64,000 nt of DNA. Origin: an uncultured Acidobacteriota bacterium. Lineage in GTDB: Bacteria > Acidobacteriota > UBA6911. Position numbers and translations under genes: made by a program. This document shows, piece by piece, positions 7,301-40,330 of the stretch. The stretch is taken from the NCBI GenBank assembly GCA_963827655.1, contig CAWHCF010000023.1, positions 192,001-256,000 of the forward strand. Reading direction: 5' to 3'. Positions within the stretch are counted from its first letter, which is position 1, and each line of letters starts with the position of its first letter. The notes below the pieces were generated by a model. It was not told where the DNA came from, did not search any database, and saw only the letters and a program-made list of their open reading frames with translations.

Positions 7301-7577
7301 CCCCGACGCATTCGTCCTGCCGGCAGCCGGCACGCTCGCGCCCACGGGGCGCAACTTCATGCGTCTCCCCGGTACCCATAACTGGGACCTCTCGCTGGCG
7401 AAGGACTTCTCGCTCCACGAGCGATCCAAGCTCGAGTTCCGCGCCGAGGCCTTCAACGCGTTCAACCACACCCAGTTCTCCGCGGTAGGGACGAACATGA
7501 ACGCCGCCAACTTCGGGCACGTCACCACGGCAAGGTCGCCCCGGACCATGCAGCTCAGCATGCGGATAACGTTTTAG
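4341..7577 (+). CDS. TonB-dependent receptor, Oar-like, with N-terminal carboxypeptidase-regulatory-like domain
   Basis: GIVQDNSGSVIPGVEV...TDESGNY N-domain, NFAPRFGFAYD, YTWSKAID, EFRAEAFNAFNHTQF, terminal F; GGAGG RBS. Confidence 0.93.
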   Translation: MRLIHVRSTCRCTLSLLTLLAAFGGRVYGQEVNASVHGIVQDNSGSVIPGVEVQVRSLDTNRVFRALTDESGNYNITQVPIGRYEVGAELQGFKKAVVTDIVLRVNDRRRVNFTLEVGGITEIVTVAASLVAVDTASGTTSSIMGSEDLLQLPSSGRQVMPFSMIMPGVTGRNTDTRTSQQQAVNGVRPTHNAWLLDGGYNIDTGGNWGMPMAPNMETVAEFRAIRGNYSAEFGIGGGSQFNVVTRGGSNEFHGALSWYHRADWINARNFFSPTKEPFRNNDFGGSIGGPVIIPGLYHGRDKTFFFAFFGARTERREERFTSKVPEMAYRTGDFSTLGTVIRDPATGEPFPGNIIPANRIDTFAKNYTAVYPAPNFRDSLGNNYTVLQPRSFNLPQQNYRIDHHFNERHRIFGRYAREFQESEYFTGPGFDNFLRRDEVPVNNTVINFYSTFSPTLLNEVSFTRSHNRIMQFPPEFPRDQYGLNIPELVPQTEENYPLDSLNLSTIPDKAPNITITNYRAIDPAAPWSNYQSIFDFKDNLTWVRGRHTLKTGFDYAYEKKFEPADTNVFGAFNFDGRFSGDGYSDFLLGRAVSYNESSSVSFNDNRRHALELYLDDSWKTSRRLTLNLGVRYSYFPPSGEPDERYRFFLPSAYDPSKAVTVLPNGQIPRTGGDRFNGLANPKDYWDYTAWNFAPRFGFAYDLFGNGVTAVRGGYGIFYSREILGAFILIASNPPFQERLEIENTSLSNPGGGSTRNFDLPINLSSMDTKQHTPYTQQWNLNIQQSLTRGTVLEVGYAGSRALHMMRSRDLNLGPLSADVAAGRINAAALRPYSGWGSISHREQSYGSVYHGLQIGLDRRFHAGLGIKAAYTWSKAIDDAEFTGGIYGLSAYYPTHLNGQRGPATYDTPHRFVASYIYQLPGFSNHNALVRGVLGGWSISGITVFETGYPFTPTIGRDLAGLGGALDQRPLVAGNWKMEERIGTLYFSPDAFVLPAAGTLAPTGRNFMRLPGTHNWDLSLAKDFSLHERSKLEFRAEAFNAFNHTQFSAVGTNMNAANFGHVTTARSPRTMQLSMRITF

Positions 7578-7587
7578 TCACGGACGT

Positions 7588-8518
7588 CAGAACGTGTGAA
7601 GAAATTGGTCTGATAGGGGTAGGGAGGATCGATTGAGTTCGATCCCCCCTCCCTCCGAACCGGACGTGCGGATCTCCCGCATCCGGCTCTCCAGTCGGTG
7701 GTTCACCTCGAAGAGGGAAGACGTGCCATTCAGAGGCGTTGGTCAGGATCCCACACCTGCGAATGTAACTGAAAACTTTCGCGATTGGTTTCCAGTTGCC
7801 CGGATGACCAAGGCTGTCAACATGCATCTCACGTGCGCTGCCAGTTCCGGCCACGGGGTTCAACCCGTCGCTCTCTCCGACTCGCATAGCCCTTGGGCAT
7901 TAGCGTCGGTTCGTCTTCTGTCAGTCACGCATCCATGCATCCACCTCCCTGCGCTCCTTTGCTCCAGGCCCATTACGGCCCTTCCCCGCTCTTATGAGCG
8001 CTCTGACTCTGCCCGCCTGGCTCTTCGGCTCTTCCGAGCATGAACTCCGGCTCCTGCTACGAGCAGGTCTCCCTGATTCACGCACTTGATCTTCCGATCC
8101 CTCCGTCTCCAACCACCAGTCAGTCCCCCAACGTCGCTTTCGCACGCTACCCCTCAGCTCGTCGAGTCTCCCGCTTTTGCGGGTCTAGGTTTTGCCTTAC
8201 GCCAGCAGGCTCGCCGATACAGACCGGCCGAATCGAGTTCGTTATCCTACGGATGGATCGTTCACCTCCTGCTGCTCCCCACCCCGCCTCACGGCGACGC
8301 AGTTGCATTCGGTTTCAGGCCGGAGAGCGTATGCCTGGAGAGGACTTTCACCTCTCTGATCATGTGCGCTTTAAGGCGCACTGGCGACGGGTCATAGACC
8401 CGTCGCAAGTAACGTGATAGCTGAGACTTAGCCTTAAAAAGTTCATTTGTGCTACTAGGGGGCCGGACGGGCTTGATAGCCCGTCCGAACATGTATCGGG
8501 TCGTTCTGCGACGGTCTC
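7588..8518. mobile_element. Non-autonomous MITE-like element (copy A) interrupted by group II intron 1
   Basis: Ends CAGAACGTGTGAAGAAATT and TTCTGCGACGGTCTC; internal hairpins GGACGGGCTTGATAGCCCGTCC and GCGACGGGTC-ATA-GACCCGTCGC; homologous to 35195-35557 and 40206-40330. Confidence 0.6.
7613..8381 (-). ncRNA. ORF-less group II intron, copy 1 (769 nt)
   Basis: 5' GTGCG; domain V GAGCCGGATGCGGGAGATCCGCACGTCCGGTTC (7657-7689, AGC triad); domain VI ending CCCTACCCCTAT; no RT ORF. Boundaries are supported by an uninterrupted homologous site at 35494/35495. Confidence 0.92.
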
Positions 8519-8548
8519 TAATGACCCGCGCCTCGGAACCGCCAGGAA

Positions 8549-9430
8549 ATGAGGACCAACCCCATGACTAAACTCTCAAGACTGATTCTCCTCTCCCTGC
8601 TGCTGCCGGCCGGGACAATTACGGCCGACCGGCCCGCGGAAATCCCGCTCTGGCCGAGCGGCGCACCCGGCTCGGAGGGTAAGGCGACGCGGGAGGTCGT
8701 AGCTACCTCGGAAACGGGTGAGCTGCGCGTCTCGAGCATCCACAATCCGAGCATCACGCCGTATCTCCCCGCGAAGGACAAGGCCACCGGCGCCGCAGTG
8801 CTCGTCATCCCGGGGGGCGGTCACCGGCTGCTCGCGATAACCCACGAGGGTTACAACGTGGCGGAGTGGCTGGCCGAGCGCGGCATCGCCGCTTTCGTCC
8901 TCAAACACCGTCTGGCGCGCGAGCCGGGCTCGACCTATCAGGTGGAGGTCCACTCGCTCCAGGACACGCAGCGCGCCCTTCGTCTCATCCGCAGCCGCGC
9001 CGCGGAGTGGGGGGTGGATGCCGCGCGCCTGGGCGTGATGGGCTTCTCGGCCGGCGGCGAGCTCGCGGCGCTCGCCAGCATGCGCTTCGACAATGGCATC
9101 GAAGGCGCCGCCGACGCTGTCGACCGGCAGGGCTCAAAGCCCGCCTTCCAGGCGCTGATCTATCCCGGCGCCTCGAGCAAGATCGTTCCCGCCAAGGACT
9201 CGCCACCGGTGTTCCTGGCGTGTGGCTATGGTGACCGGCCCGACATCTCCGAAGGCCTGGCGACCGTGTATCTCGCGTTCAAGAAGGTCGGCGTTCCGGC
9301 GGAGCTCCACATCTACGCCGGCGCCGGACACGGCTTCGGCTTGCGCGCGTCCAATCGCACTCCGGCCGCGAGCTGGCCGGAGCGCTTCAAGGATTGGCTG
9401 GCGGACCGCGGGTTCTTGGGCAAGTCCTGA
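8549..9430 (+). CDS. Secreted alpha/beta hydrolase (xylan esterase/BD-FAE-like)
   Basis: Signal peptide; PGGGH, GFSAGG nucleophile, GHGFG. Start may be at 8564. Confidence 0.88.
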   Translation: MRTNPMTKLSRLILLSLLLPAGTITADRPAEIPLWPSGAPGSEGKATREVVATSETGELRVSSIHNPSITPYLPAKDKATGAAVLVIPGGGHRLLAITHEGYNVAEWLAERGIAAFVLKHRLAREPGSTYQVEVHSLQDTQRALRLIRSRAAEWGVDAARLGVMGFSAGGELAALASMRFDNGIEGAADAVDRQGSKPAFQALIYPGASSKIVPAKDSPPVFLACGYGDRPDISEGLATVYLAFKKVGVPAELHIYAGAGHGFGLRASNRTPAASWPERFKDWLADRGFLGKS

Positions 9431-9458
9431 GCCTCAATCGGCGGATCGGCTGACTTTG

Positions 9459-10226
9459 ATAGGGGTAGGGAGGACCGATTGAGTTCGATCCCCCCTCCCT
9501 CCGAACCGGACGTGCGGATCTCCCGCATCCGGCTCTCCAGTCGGTGGTTCACCTCGATGAGGGTTGACATGCCATTCGGAGGCAGTGGTCAGGATCCCAT
9601 ACCTGCAAATGGAACTGAAAACCTTCGCGACTGGTCTCCAGTTGCTCTGATGACCAAGGCTGTCAACATGCATCTCGCGTGGGCTGCCAGTTCACGCCAC
9701 GGGTTGAACCCGTGGTTCTCTCCGACTCGCTTAGCCCTTGGGCACTCGCATCGGTTTGTCTTCTGTCAGTCCCGCGTCCATGCATCCACCTCCCTGCGCC
9801 CCTTTGCTCCAGGCCCATTACGGCCCTTCCTCGCTCCTATGGGCGCTCTGACTCCTGCACGCCCGGTTCTTCGGCTCTTGCGAGCATGAACACCGGCTCC
9901 TGTTACGGACAGGTCTCCCTGATTCACGCACTTGATCTTCCGATCCCTCCGTCTCCAACCACCGGTCAGGCCCCGACGTCGCTTTCGCACGCTACCCCTC
10001 AGCTCGTCGAGTCTCCCGCTCTCGCGGGTCTAGGCTTCGCCATTCGCTCGCAGGCTCGCCGACACAGACCGGCCGAATCGAGTTCGTTATCCTACGGATG
10101 GATCGTTCACCTCCTGCTGCTCCCCACCCCGCCTCACGGCGACGCAGTTGCAGTCGGTTACAGGCCGGAGAGCGTTTACCTGGAGAGGACTTTCACCTCT
10201 CTGATCATGTGCGCTTACAGGCGCAC
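9459..10226 (-). ncRNA. ORF-less group II intron, copy 2 (768 nt)
   Basis: Collinear, diverged paralog of copy 1; 5' GTGCG, identical domain V (9503-9535), 3' CCCTAT. Confidence 0.92.
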
Positions 10227-10345
10227 GAGTGCGCAAGCTTGCTTGCGCCTTGGATTGCGGCAGCTTGCTGCCGCACCCGCGAAATGGCCAACTCGTGCCC
10301 CTCACGGGCGGGCCTGGCGAAGCAACGCCAGACTAAGGCGGTTGG
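10227..10345. repeat. GGAG-type REP/REPIN-like palindromic element, target of intron 2
   Basis: (TTTG)GAGTGCGCAAGC-TT-GCTTGCGC and TGCGGCAGC-TT-GCTGCCGCA hairpins; related copies at 34113-34140 and 40058-40130. Confidence 0.7.
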
Positions 10346-34052: not shown

Positions 34053-34160
34053 GAATATCCTTTCCTTGGAGACGCAATACGAATGCGCCCGCAGAAATGT
34101 TCGTCCTTTTGCAGGAGTGCGGTAGCTTGCTTCGCCGTTCCAATTCAGCTGCTACCTCCG

Positions 34161-35194: not shown

Positions 35195-35557
35195 GAGACC
35201 GTCGCAAAACCCCCCGAAACATGTGCGGACGGGCTATCAAGCCCGTCCGGCCCCTAGTGGCACAAAAGCTTTCATTGGTCATTTCTCATTCGTCATCTGT
35301 CATTTGTCATTAGTGCGTGTTGCGGGCCGGGTTTGCGCTCGCAGACTACGCGGGCCTTGTTACAATCCCTTCCCCCCATGAATGACAAATGAAAAATGAA
35401 AAAATGGCTAATGACTAATGACAGGAAAAGAACTTCTTAAGGGTAAATCCTCCCGATCACGTTACTTGCGACGGTTTCTGATGGCCCGTCGCCACAGGGG
35501 GCTCGGATAATGTCTGAGCCGATCTACAGGGGAGCGCGTATGTTGTGCAACAGTCTC
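35195..35557. mobile_element. MITE-like element (copy B) with terminal IRs and an internal heptamer-repeat insertion
   Basis: GAGACCGTCGCAAAA ... TTGTGCAACAGTCTC; flanked by CTGAT / ATCAG (AT duplication in a palindrome); same internal hairpins as copy A. Confidence 0.72.
35269..35425. repeat. Inverted heptamer-repeat element (TCATTTG ... AATGACA) flanked by an AAAAG direct repeat
   Basis: Absent from the homologous position of MITE copies A and C; AAAAG at 35264-35268 and 35426-35430. Confidence 0.8.
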
Positions 35558-40057: not shown

Positions 40058-40330
40058 CTGGAGTGCGGTAGTTTGCTGAACTTGCTACCGACTTAGTTTG
40101 GCGAAGCTTGCTTCGCCATGCTCGCCCGCGAGAAGGTGTGAAAAATTCAGCGAACGGCTCTCGATTGACCGGCGTGCCCTTTGGCTTTTGTGGCGTGGGT
40201 CATCAGAGACTGTCGCAAAACTCGCTCGGTTCATGTGCGGGCGGGCTATCAAGCCCGTCCGGCCTCCGAGATGGCAATGAACTTGTTCGAAATACGTCCT
40301 TCGATCGGGTTTACTTACGACGGGCCAAAT
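40058..40330. repeat. Cluster: GGAG-REP half, IS1182-like end (40130-40148) and truncated MITE copy C (40206-40330)
   Basis: CTGGAGTGCGGTAG..., GGCGAAGC-TT-GCTTCGCC, GAGAAGGTGTGAAAAATTC, GAGACTGTCGCAAAA...GGGCTATCAAGCCCGTCCGG. Confidence 0.65.

Follow-up and report, generated by a model that had tools for sequence, protein, structure and literature searches.

Two ORF-less group II introns at different REP hairpins of an acidobacterial genome, and the hairpin-associated intron lineage to which they belong

The present work concerns a 64,000 nucleotide (nt) stretch of DNA (referred to below as the window) from an uncultured Acidobacteriota bacterium of the lineage UBA6911 (assembly GCA_963827655.1, contig CAWHCF010000023.1, forward strand; C23:192001-256000 in the contig numbering used here), which carries two group II introns, copy 1 and copy 2, without an intact open reading frame (ORF). 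Each is inserted 2–4 nt 3' of a hairpin belonging to a repetitive extragenic palindrome (REP), and the REP is a different one in each case. These introns are likely to be non-autonomous deletion derivatives of a lineage that chooses its targets by the combination of a hairpin, a five-base exon-binding site 1 (EBS1) and a single-base exon-binding site 3 (EBS3). This reading is based on the anatomy of the two introns, on the covariation of EBS1 and EBS3 with the exons across the lineage, on the enrichment and tight spacing of hairpins ahead of the insertion sites, on the lack of a signal for a second exon-binding site (EBS2), and on a relative's genome (G049) in which multiplied ORF-less copies reside together with full-length introns.

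Both introns lie on the minus strand (Table 1), and the Rfam model RF00029 for domains V–VI matches each of them above its gathering score of 40. Their termini (5' GUGCG, 3' CUAU) conform to the group II rule GUGYG/AY, domain VI contains a bulged branch A, and domains V–VI agree with the consensus of the group II ribozyme, with an AGC triad and a 5-nt loop in domain V (GAGAU in both window copies, GAGAA in a relative from genome G002). The two copies are 91.8% identical over 770 columns, and none of the 64 differences of copy 2 from copy 1 is located in domain V and one in domain VI, which suggests that the catalytic core has been constrained during the divergence of the two branches. No reverse transcriptase (RT) gene is present in either intron, their translations retaining only degenerate codons of the 5' part of the ORF, which reach as far as an MLTAL-like motif; homology to full-length relatives (by blastn) extends over nt 1 to ~442 of copy 1 and to ~513 of copy 2, and restarts ~104 nt before the 3' end. 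The initial annotation of this DNA had described two non-autonomous, ORF-less group II introns with an AGC triad at different REP hairpins, and the RF00029 matches, the termini, the junctions and the ORF remnants confirm this description and make the strand explicit.

Relatives of the window introns were collected from three sources, viz. genomes from the class of the host (25 of 137 match the first 300 nt of the intron at E <= 1e-8), a protein-based scan in which each species was represented by a single genome (the best 80 of 590 confirmed relatives were kept), and two Burkholderiales plasmids. The insertion sites numbered 113, then 108 and finally 103 non-redundant ones, sites with identical last 30 nt being merged, and the set for EBS1 comprises the 98 of the 103 sites with at least 300 nt of intron. 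The loci left out are the window itself (L001), two with a degenerate 5' end (L007 and L016), one with its 5' end off the contig (L014), those with a 5' end unaligned to model position 1–2 (L069, L085, L088, L104 and L106), those without a 5' hit, and sites with less than 30 nt upstream. No claim is built on genome G034, which has two weak domain V matches only.

A comparison of every well-occupied alignment column of intron nt 1–230 with exon positions -16 to -1 has identified exactly five column pairs that stand out. Intron nt 178–182 pair in antiparallel orientation with exon positions -1 to -5 in fractions of 0.99, 0.94, 0.99, 0.93 and 0.89 of the 98 sites, vs. 0.55, 0.70, 0.66, 0.45 and 0.38 upon permutation (z 9.2–13.5), and the next best column pair has a z of 4.4 and a pairing fraction of 0.39. 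The five intron bases represent EBS1 and the last five bases of the 5' exon represent the intron-binding site 1 (IBS1). Pairing is complete in 77 of the 98 introns and involves four of the five positions in 18 others, including copy 2; the last three pair at three positions or fewer, at least one of them because of an alignment shift. With 43 different EBS1 and 46 different IBS1 5-mers in the set, the guide is indeed short and reprogrammable, as had been proposed, and this covariation identifies as EBS1 the two 5-mers which the initial annotation had matched to the exon ends at five of five (UGGCG to CGCCA) and four of five positions (GAGCG to CACUC).

A second contact was recognized downstream. 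The top column for EBS3 within the first 230 nt was an artefact with a pairing fraction of 0.05 and was rejected; a scan of nt 186–400 identified nt 269, which pairs with base +1 of the 3' exon (IBS3) in 80 of 83 introns (z 8.6). This exon base is C in 73 of the 83 and, as had been noticed before, in both window copies. For EBS2, the longest complementarity of exon positions -6 to -17 to intron nt 1–120, 120–150, 150–172 and 189–229 equals the permuted expectation in all four segments (5.00 vs. 5.07 +/- 0.09 for nt 150–172), the same statistic giving 4.88 vs. 3.69 +/- 0.07 for EBS1 as a control. More direct evidence for the lack of an EBS2 is provided by five introns of G002, which differ by 0–1 nt over 1873 nt and are located behind five different stems that have only the last few bases in common.

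The structural context of EBS1 was obtained with RNAalifold from domain I of 25 diverse introns, the consensus having at least one compensatory change at 40 of its 58 pairs. In the distal portion of domain Id, EBS1 occupies an 11–12-nt terminal loop with a GCC/GGC closure above a 3-base-pair (bp) GGC/GCC stem. The pairs of the outer stem of this element show compensatory changes in 1, 5 and 2 sequences, and its inner 3-bp stem is nearly invariant and neither supports nor contradicts the stem-loop. The GCC..GGC stem-loop of the initial annotation is hence upheld by conservation and covariation in the alignments and not by folding energy. The distal Id stem-loop of the consensus is the putative equivalent of the domain Id3 in which EBS1 had been expected. 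Behind the EBS1 element lies a small and variable hairpin. In IIE and IIF introns alpha-prime is located at the tip of an Id3 stem-loop, and Id3 has an additional bulge loop; any assignment of alpha and alpha-prime in the present introns would be tentative. Minimum-energy folds of the whole introns contained inconsistent long-range pairings and were discarded.

The bases that precede the junction are enriched in hairpins. A perfect stem of at least 6 bp with a loop of 3–8 nt, ending 0–8 nt before the junction, is found at 63 of the 103 insertion sites, vs. 74 of 2060 windows taken from these loci as controls (3.6%); for stems of at least 5 bp the corresponding counts are 85 of 103 and 179 of 2060 (8.7%), and in the subset from the cross-phylum scan such stems are present at 55 of 60 sites. 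The distance from the end of the stem to the junction is most commonly 3 nt (26 of 63 sites) and is 2–4 nt at 46 of the 63, with loops mostly of 3–4 nt. Runs of T (at least five T in the first 8 bases) are present in none of 81 3' exons and these hairpins are thus not intrinsic terminators, which may be the reason why surveys based on terminators would miss the pattern. The same arrangement, with unrelated stems, recurs in Acidobacteriota, Planctomycetota, Verrucomicrobiota, Thermodesulfobacteriota, Cloacimonadota, Myxococcota and plasmids of Betaproteobacteria. The plasmid members of the lineage (L138 and L139, from pBN3 of Paraburkholderia aromaticivorans and a plasmid of Cupriavidus taiwanensis) share the same 23-nt end of the 5' exon in two genera, which consists of a 5-bp hairpin followed by TTAGT and fits the guide ACUAA; the pBN3 copy is located between two integrase or recombinase genes. 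No named reference intron was among the plasmid matches. The initial annotation had ascribed the reading of hairpins to a non-autonomous intron family. The association with hairpins itself stands, and identical or 1-nt-different copies behind different stems argue for it by comparative inference, but it is a trait of the whole ORF-containing lineage and not of the ORF-less copies in particular.

The enrichment could in principle arise without any role for the hairpins, if targeting depended only on the six bases read by EBS1 and EBS3 and if insertions survived preferentially in neutral and numerous REP or other palindromic spacers. The location of the window introns agrees with this alternative, since both are intergenic and antisense to the flanking plus-strand genes (an ORF of 1086 amino acids (aa) with its end at 7577 and one of 293 aa at 8549–9430), a setting that fits the 'hiding' of bacterial introns (Waldern et al., 2020), and sites without a perfect stem of 5 bp or more also exist in the lineage. 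Nonetheless, neutrality does not account for the tight spacing between stem and junction or for the same arrangement in many phyla with unrelated stems, and it would scatter insertions over all intergenic matches to the guide, whereas the three UGGCG copies of this genome are, as detailed below, all at the feet of one REP family. Furthermore, the near-identical and hence recent copies of G002 and G049 are already all located behind hairpins. We therefore regard the hairpins as unlikely to be bystanders, and favor the reading in which they form part of the target.

The genome of the window (assembly G000; 8.18 Mb, 53 contigs, 90% complete) allows a closer look at the targets. Two families of repeated short palindromes, REP-A and REP-B, qualify as REPs here, with units that are presumably intergenic. 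When copy 1 is excised in silico, a hairpin with a 10-bp stem and a 3-nt loop, followed by CA, is joined to the 3' exon CAG, and excision of copy 2 joins an 8-bp hairpin and ACTC to the 3' exon CAA; none of 200 shuffled sequences folds as well as the exon hairpin of copy 1, and 3 of 200 do so for copy 2 (energies in Table 1). Two further full copies are present in the assembly, viz. copy 3 at C36:239848-240617 (7 differences from copy 1, 99% identity) and copy 4 at C5:19899-20666 (31 differences, 97%), which has changes in domains V–VI and at 30.6 bits falls under the Rfam threshold. From their sequences, the catalytic core appears intact in copies 1, 2 and 3, and copy 4 is decaying. Two partial elements were also observed: an internal fragment at C13:1188-1690(+) (L136; intron nt 98–599, 99% identical to copy 1) with unrelated flanks and neither hairpin nor intron ends, and a lone domain V–VI relic at C23:173316-173387(-) (L137; 47.3 bits) of a related intron of the AGC type, which ends CUAU/CA and follows an apparent remnant of a transposase gene (here and below a slash between bases denotes the junction).

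Copies 1, 3 and 4 are each located behind a 10-bp hairpin and CA, and these three host hairpins vary in their loop and mid-stem. A strict pattern for REP-A identifies 40 loci in the genome, 38 of which have the CA foot; three hold an ORF-less intron and 34 read CGCCA/CAC without interruption. The 6-mer CGCCA/C occurs 7467 times on both strands, and 38 of these occurrences are REP-A feet. The insertion of all three of the three UGGCG copies at these feet is accordingly far from chance. As the REP-A hairpin is palindromic, it is the foot that sets the strand of insertion, the opposite side (...CGCAAG) not fitting the guide. REP-A forms the core of an oriented repeat of ~100 nt at ~40 loci (window 35435–35530(+) being one), with arms conserved on both sides, and resembles a small miniature inverted-repeat transposable element (MITE) more than a bare REP. 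This repeat, together with similar flanks of copies 1 and 4 on both sides, would be compatible with a spread of the introns as passengers of REP or MITE transposition or of segmental duplication instead of by retromobility. We consider such passive spread most improbable, because the host REP-A units vary in loop and stem just as the empty units do, which indicates that the intron moved and not the REP, and because the flanks beyond the repeat are unrelated, the 3' flank of copy 3 is different, and each copy has junctions that coincide exactly with the intron termini.

Copy 2 represents an older branch with 8% divergence and is the lone element of its type in the genome. Its host family REP-B includes several units with one common foot, viz. 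empty units identical to the host of copy 2 and variants with other stems and the same ACTC/CA foot. Directly before copy 2, at window 10231–10280, two hairpins of the REP-B type are arranged in tandem, the second with another stem, and the intron follows the first only. Three uninterrupted sites which had been listed in the initial annotation are real; the first is a degenerate REP-A unit on the plus strand, and the others are REP-B-like sequences on the minus strand with longer loops or imperfect stems (Table 1). The proposed switch between REP families is thus supported by copies 1, 3 and 4 in REP-A, copy 2 in REP-B and two changes in EBS1, without any implication as to the order of events for copy 2. 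Relative to copy 1, the first two EBS1 positions of copy 2 are changed (U to G and G to A), which creates pairs with positions -1 and -2 of the exon end CACUC, and a C stands opposite the A at position -4. It is possible, though less probable than not, that an ancestor guided to REP-A inserted ectopically at a REP-B foot and that EBS1 subsequently drifted or was partly compensated in place, or that plain drift accounts for the difference. The presence of a single copy-2-type element, the mismatch that persists at position -4, the C and G which copy 2 retains in common with copy 1 at EBS1 positions 4 and 5, and the tolerance of a four-of-five match by 18 of the 98 relatives are all in keeping with an ectopic origin. 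Against it, the guide of copy 1 would pair with CACUC at only three of five positions, both substitutions form pairs at the two positions adjoining the splice site, and relatives at ...CACUC/ feet in G088 and in a Verrucomicrobiae metagenome-assembled genome carry the guide GAGUG, so that targets of this kind are used by the lineage. Guide and target covary in either order of events.

Table 1. Coordinates of the two introns, their target sites and the related uninterrupted sites within the window.
Feature	Position	Strand	Characteristics
ORF-less group II intron, copy 1	7613..8381	-	769 nt; 5' GUGCG at 8381, 3' CUAU at 7613
Domains V–VI of copy 1	7613..7691	-	RF00029, 57.9 bits; AGC triad, GAGAU loop, bulged A
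EBS1 of copy 1 (UGGCG, intron nt 178–182)	8200..8204	-	covariation z 9.2–13.5; 5/5 with own exon
EBS3 of copy 1 (G, intron nt 269)	8113	-	pairs with exon +1 in 80/83 introns, z 8.6
IBS1 of copy 1 (CGCCA)	8382..8386	-	overlaps last 3 bases of the 3' arm of the hairpin
REP-A hairpin of copy 1 (10-bp stem, 3-nt loop)	8384..8406	-	-19.4 kcal/mol, z -6.3
IBS3 of copy 1 (C, 3' exon base 1)	7612	-	
Domain IV remnant of copy 1 (intron nt 443–666)	7716..7939	-	blastn stops at nt 442, restarts at nt 666; remaining RT ORF deleted
ORF-less group II intron, copy 2	9459..10226	-	768 nt
Domains V–VI of copy 2	9459..9537	-	RF00029, 57.5 bits
EBS1 of copy 2 (GAGCG)	10045..10049	-	4/5 with exon CACUC; position -4 mismatched
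EBS3 of copy 2 (G)	9959	-	column homologous to copy 1 nt 269
IBS1 of copy 2 (CACUC)	10227..10231	-	
REP-B hairpin of copy 2	10231..10248	-	8-bp stem/2-nt loop or 7 bp/4-nt loop; -11.6 kcal/mol, z -2.9
IBS3 of copy 2 (C)	9458	-	
Uninterrupted degenerate REP-A unit	35462..35500	+	CGCCA/C at 35494/35495
Uninterrupted REP-B-like unit	40061..40095	-	ends GCACTC/C at 40061/40060; 6-bp stem, 13-nt loop
Uninterrupted REP-B-like foot	34115..34145	-	ends GCACTC/C at 34115/34114; imperfect hairpin

Some additional characteristics of the introns are also of note. A scan for promoter-like sites yielded none, and three terminator-like sites were found vs. 3.0 expected, i.e. at chance level. Within the domain IV remnant of copy 1 (nt 511–532; window 7850–7871(-)) there is a hairpin whose 5' arm agrees with the REP-A arm at 9 of 10 bases, which may be due to chance; the homologous stretch of copy 2 contains a different, perfect 7-bp hairpin. 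In one sub-branch of the lineage (L017 of G088 and L033–L036 of G091) the introns start with GCGCG instead of GUGCG and apparently end with ...CUAG instead of ...CUAU, and this change at both termini may represent covariation between the intron ends.

The full-length relatives are 1.78–1.96 kb in length, occur in Acidobacteriota, Planctomycetota, Verrucomicrobiota and Burkholderiales plasmids, and encode a protein of ~450 aa with the domains RVT_1 and GIIM and without an endonuclease domain. The RT domain is complete (PF00078, 1–205 of 205), and the NCBIfam label is that of a generic group II RT/maturase only. These proteins are 52–64% identical to the G002 protein in a seven-protein alignment and 53–68% identical among non-identical loci of other phyla. 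A single group II intron in the assembly of the window encodes an RT, and it is of a different kind: located at C22:~191508-193458(-) (L133), it scores 129 bits with the Rfam model D1D4-3, which we take to be class C, and 36 bits with D1D4-1, and its triad reads CGC by eye. The RT, which shares 39% identity with the G002 protein, is split between two reading frames (by a frameshift or an assembly error). A REP-A hairpin precedes this intron as well, the insertion point being 6 nt further downstream than in copies 1, 3 and 4. The window copies reach the threshold of none of the Rfam D1–D4 models (the best being D1D4-4 with 16 bits, E 0.43), nor do four relatives at the gathering score.

As judged from these sequence features, the ribozyme of the window introns is not IIC-like and is IIB-like with IIE/IIF hallmarks. 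The CGC triad of class C (IIC) is replaced by AGC in both copies, and the 5-nt loop of domain V, in place of a GNRA tetraloop, is a peculiarity of IIE and IIF introns (Nagy et al., 2013). The target pattern is that of IIC introns (just 3' of a stem-loop, a short EBS1, an EBS3 and no EBS2), except that EBS1 comprises 5 bp and not 3–4, and the EBS2–IBS2 pairing drawn for published IIE/IIF members has no counterpart above permutation here. Either the lineage differs from the published IIE/IIF introns in this respect, or the EBS2–IBS2 pairings drawn for the latter are not what they seem. Class F is a reasonable guess for the lineage, since the class F variety g5 includes So.us.I2 of an acidobacterium and c-Ku.st.I1 of a planctomycete relative (Toro and Nisa-Martinez, 2014). 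That the introns are ordinary members of class IIC with an unusual domain V is very improbable. Such an assignment would accommodate the post-hairpin insertion, the lack of EBS2 and the EBS3–IBS3 pair, which together are the IIC pattern (Sonbol and Siam, 2021), and also the best matches of a related RT among solved structures, which are the IIC proteins 7uim (236 bits) and GsI-IIC (227 bits), ahead of T.el4h (IIB; 172 bits) and LtrA (151 bits), in a database (PDB) that holds no IIE/IIF protein; the protein may accordingly be closer to class C than would be expected from the ribozyme. It is contradicted by the AGC triad, the 5-nt loop of domain V and the five-base EBS1, by the D1–D4 models, none of which is reached here although the C22 intron of the same genome is matched at 129 bits, and by an RT identity of 39% to the RT of that intron vs. 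52–68% within the lineage. Most of these characters also speak for the initial annotation, which had considered the introns to be non-IIC.

Deletions that removed the ORF have occurred independently in at least three places, viz. this genome, genomes G045–G049, and G076. In G045–G049 a 747-nt form has resulted from a clean deletion of nt 582–1685 from an 1851-nt intron, and in G049 it is 99.8% and 98.8% identical, on the two sides of the deletion, to the 1851-nt form that resides in the same genome. The 936-nt form of G076 has lost ~1087 nt from an intron like that of G078. Six ORF-less copies, 0–2 nt apart and behind different hairpins, are present in G049 beside at least 10 full-length cognate RT frames, and this identity and co-residence constitute good circumstantial evidence that the short form has been mobilized in trans. 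In G000, G046, G047 and G076 the ORF-less copies are accompanied only by RTs that are ~40% identical to those of the lineage; in G047 (~26 places) and G046 (~16 places) another type of group II RT of this degree of identity has expanded beside the 747-nt form, with no cognate RT in these genomes. As no cognate protein is present in the assembly of the window, the local copies are most likely orphans, and mobilization in trans would here be history at best. The C22 intron was considered as an autonomous partner and rejected on account of its different ribozyme family, its distant RT and the split of this RT between two frames; we retain it only as a speculation of low probability.

Several points weigh against the reading favored here and should be considered together. 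No perfect stem of 5 bp or more precedes 18 of the 103 sites, although several of these show by eye a stem with one mismatch, which was not counted since the scan accepted perfect stems only. Sites of one genome or one REP family are not independent, so that the z-scores overstate the evidence, and part of the enrichment behind hairpins could be due to insertions having survived in palindromic spacers where they do no harm. By its folding energy the EBS1 stem-loop lacks significance (z +1.1 for copy 1 and +0.05 for copy 2), and the guide of copy 2 is mismatched (C opposite A at exon position -4). The complementarity test for EBS2 was confined to nt 1–229 and the column scan passed over weakly aligned columns, and the EBS2–IBS2 pairing of IIE/IIF introns has been described as 'well-conserved', yet dispensable for splicing (Nagy et al., 2013). 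A cognate RT was not found in G000 (at 90% completeness and 53 contigs), in which only the 39%-identical RT of the C22 intron and a 96-aa fragment on C49 were present. Lastly, four public sequencing runs (two of them metatranscriptomes; at most 0.27 of the sampled words in any run) yielded only short contig pieces of the window introns, of related introns and of neighboring genes, and neither an exon–exon joint nor an empty site, and they speak neither for nor against splicing, expression or polymorphism.

In the mechanism that we propose, a hairpin of DNA (or of exon RNA), the stem of which ends ~3 nt (0–8) before the insertion point, would mark the target and would be physically recognized, the target DNA probably being single-stranded. 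EBS1, in the terminal loop of the distal Id stem-loop, would then form five pairs with the last five exon bases, and one EBS3–IBS3 pair, usually G–C, would be made with base +1 of the 3' exon, with no EBS2–IBS2 pairing. This would be the targeting logic of class IIC, implemented on another ribozyme and protein lineage. Since many hairpins with one constant foot are available in REP elements, an intron with a matching guide could colonize a REP family, the foot also setting the strand of insertion; copies 1, 3 and 4 (UGGCG) would in this manner have come to occupy REP-A feet (CGCCA/C), and the two EBS1 substitutions of the older copy 2 branch would fit the REP-B foot (CACUC/C) at four positions. 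The ORF-less copies would require a protein in trans for mobility and probably also for efficient splicing.

A wider proposal, for which we see even chances, is that a widespread lineage with an IIE/IIF-type ribozyme employs IIC-like targeting (a hairpin ~3 nt upstream plus six bases read by EBS1 and EBS3), which would either be ancestral to more of the endonuclease-less introns or have arisen twice, its ORF-less derivatives being non-autonomous parasites that colonize REP families. Bolder still is the extension that where the cognate protein is missing (G000, G046, G047 and G076), its place may be taken by the RT of an intron from another class that also targets hairpins and resides in the same genome, e.g. 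the C22 intron in REP-A. If the favored reading is correct, the lineage would be a second one besides IIC, with another ribozyme and another RT, that uses structure-guided targeting, and would provide a natural comparison for how ribonucleoproteins read the shape of DNA. It could also provide a reason why the EBS2 drawn for IIE/IIF introns is dispensable in vitro, link retroelements to REP biology in soil phyla, and offer compact hairpin-directed five-base guides for engineering. The ORF-less copies illustrate with unusual clarity the proliferation of non-autonomous introns in bacteria, which has been called rare in reviews (Zimmerly and Semper, 2015). Experimental access to the lineage is afforded by the cultured plasmid hosts P. 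aromaticivorans BN5 (pBN3) and C. taiwanensis.

Among known systems, the lineage shares most of its targeting behavior with the IIC introns, which likewise enter DNA a few bases 3' of a stem-loop by means of a short EBS1 and one EBS3 pair, without EBS2 (Zimmerly and Semper, 2015; Sonbol and Siam, 2021; Gomes et al., 2025), and which also have an RT without endonuclease domain and many intergenic copies. It differs from them in its AGC triad, 5-nt domain V loop, larger IIB-like ribozyme and 5-bp EBS1, in its separate protein lineage (39% identity to the RT of the local D1D4-3-type intron), and in its targets, which are REP-type hairpins without a T-run in place of terminators or attC sites. The published accounts distinguish three target specificities, with homing ascribed to all lineages except class C (Zimmerly and Semper, 2015); the hairpin readers that are cited belong to IIC alone (Gomes et al., 2025; likewise, with hairpin targeting in class C only, Waldern et al., 2020), and the account of Sonbol and Siam (2021), which gives the CGC triad for IIC, states that upstream secondary structure has no reported role in IIB introns. 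The IIE/IIF introns (viz. [quoted passage not shown] They are set apart by a drawn EBS2–IBS2 pairing, none being detectable here, and by descriptions that, in the passages concerned, mention no upstream hairpin.

Full-text searches, supplements being outside our reach, have revealed no account of an IIE/IIF-type intron directed to REPs or hairpins, nor any of hairpin reading beyond class C and the types next to it, and the nearest precedent is the work of Miura et al. (2022). Its intron-encoded protein types g6, U1 and U2, non-class-C RTs that neighbor class C on the RT tree, are located right after predicted rho-independent terminators, other types being far from terminators. The RT of the lineage is of full length, and the relevant passages of that work are without RNA structure, EBS analysis or a link to REPs. 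The ORF-less families of Thermosynechococcus elongatus and of Trichodesmium (dnaN/RIR), which are served in trans, parallel G049 in that they arose by internal ORF deletions of a resident mobile intron, need a related intron-encoded protein, and have divergent exon-binding sites (Zimmerly and Semper, 2015; Gomes et al., 2025). They are, however, chloroplast-like IIB introns with sequence-specific homing sites and both EBS1 and EBS2, and they also differ from the ORF-less introns of G000, G046, G047 and G076, where the cognate protein is missing. Lastly, REP palindromes are landing sites for the insertion sequences IS1397, ISPpu9, ISPpu10 and ISPsy8, and among the 9 copies of group II introns in Pseudomonas putida KT2440, 2 are associated with REPs (Tobes and Pareja, 2006). 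These insertion sequences share the choice of target with the lineage described here and differ in their means, employing DNA transposases with neither a base-pairing guide nor reverse splicing.

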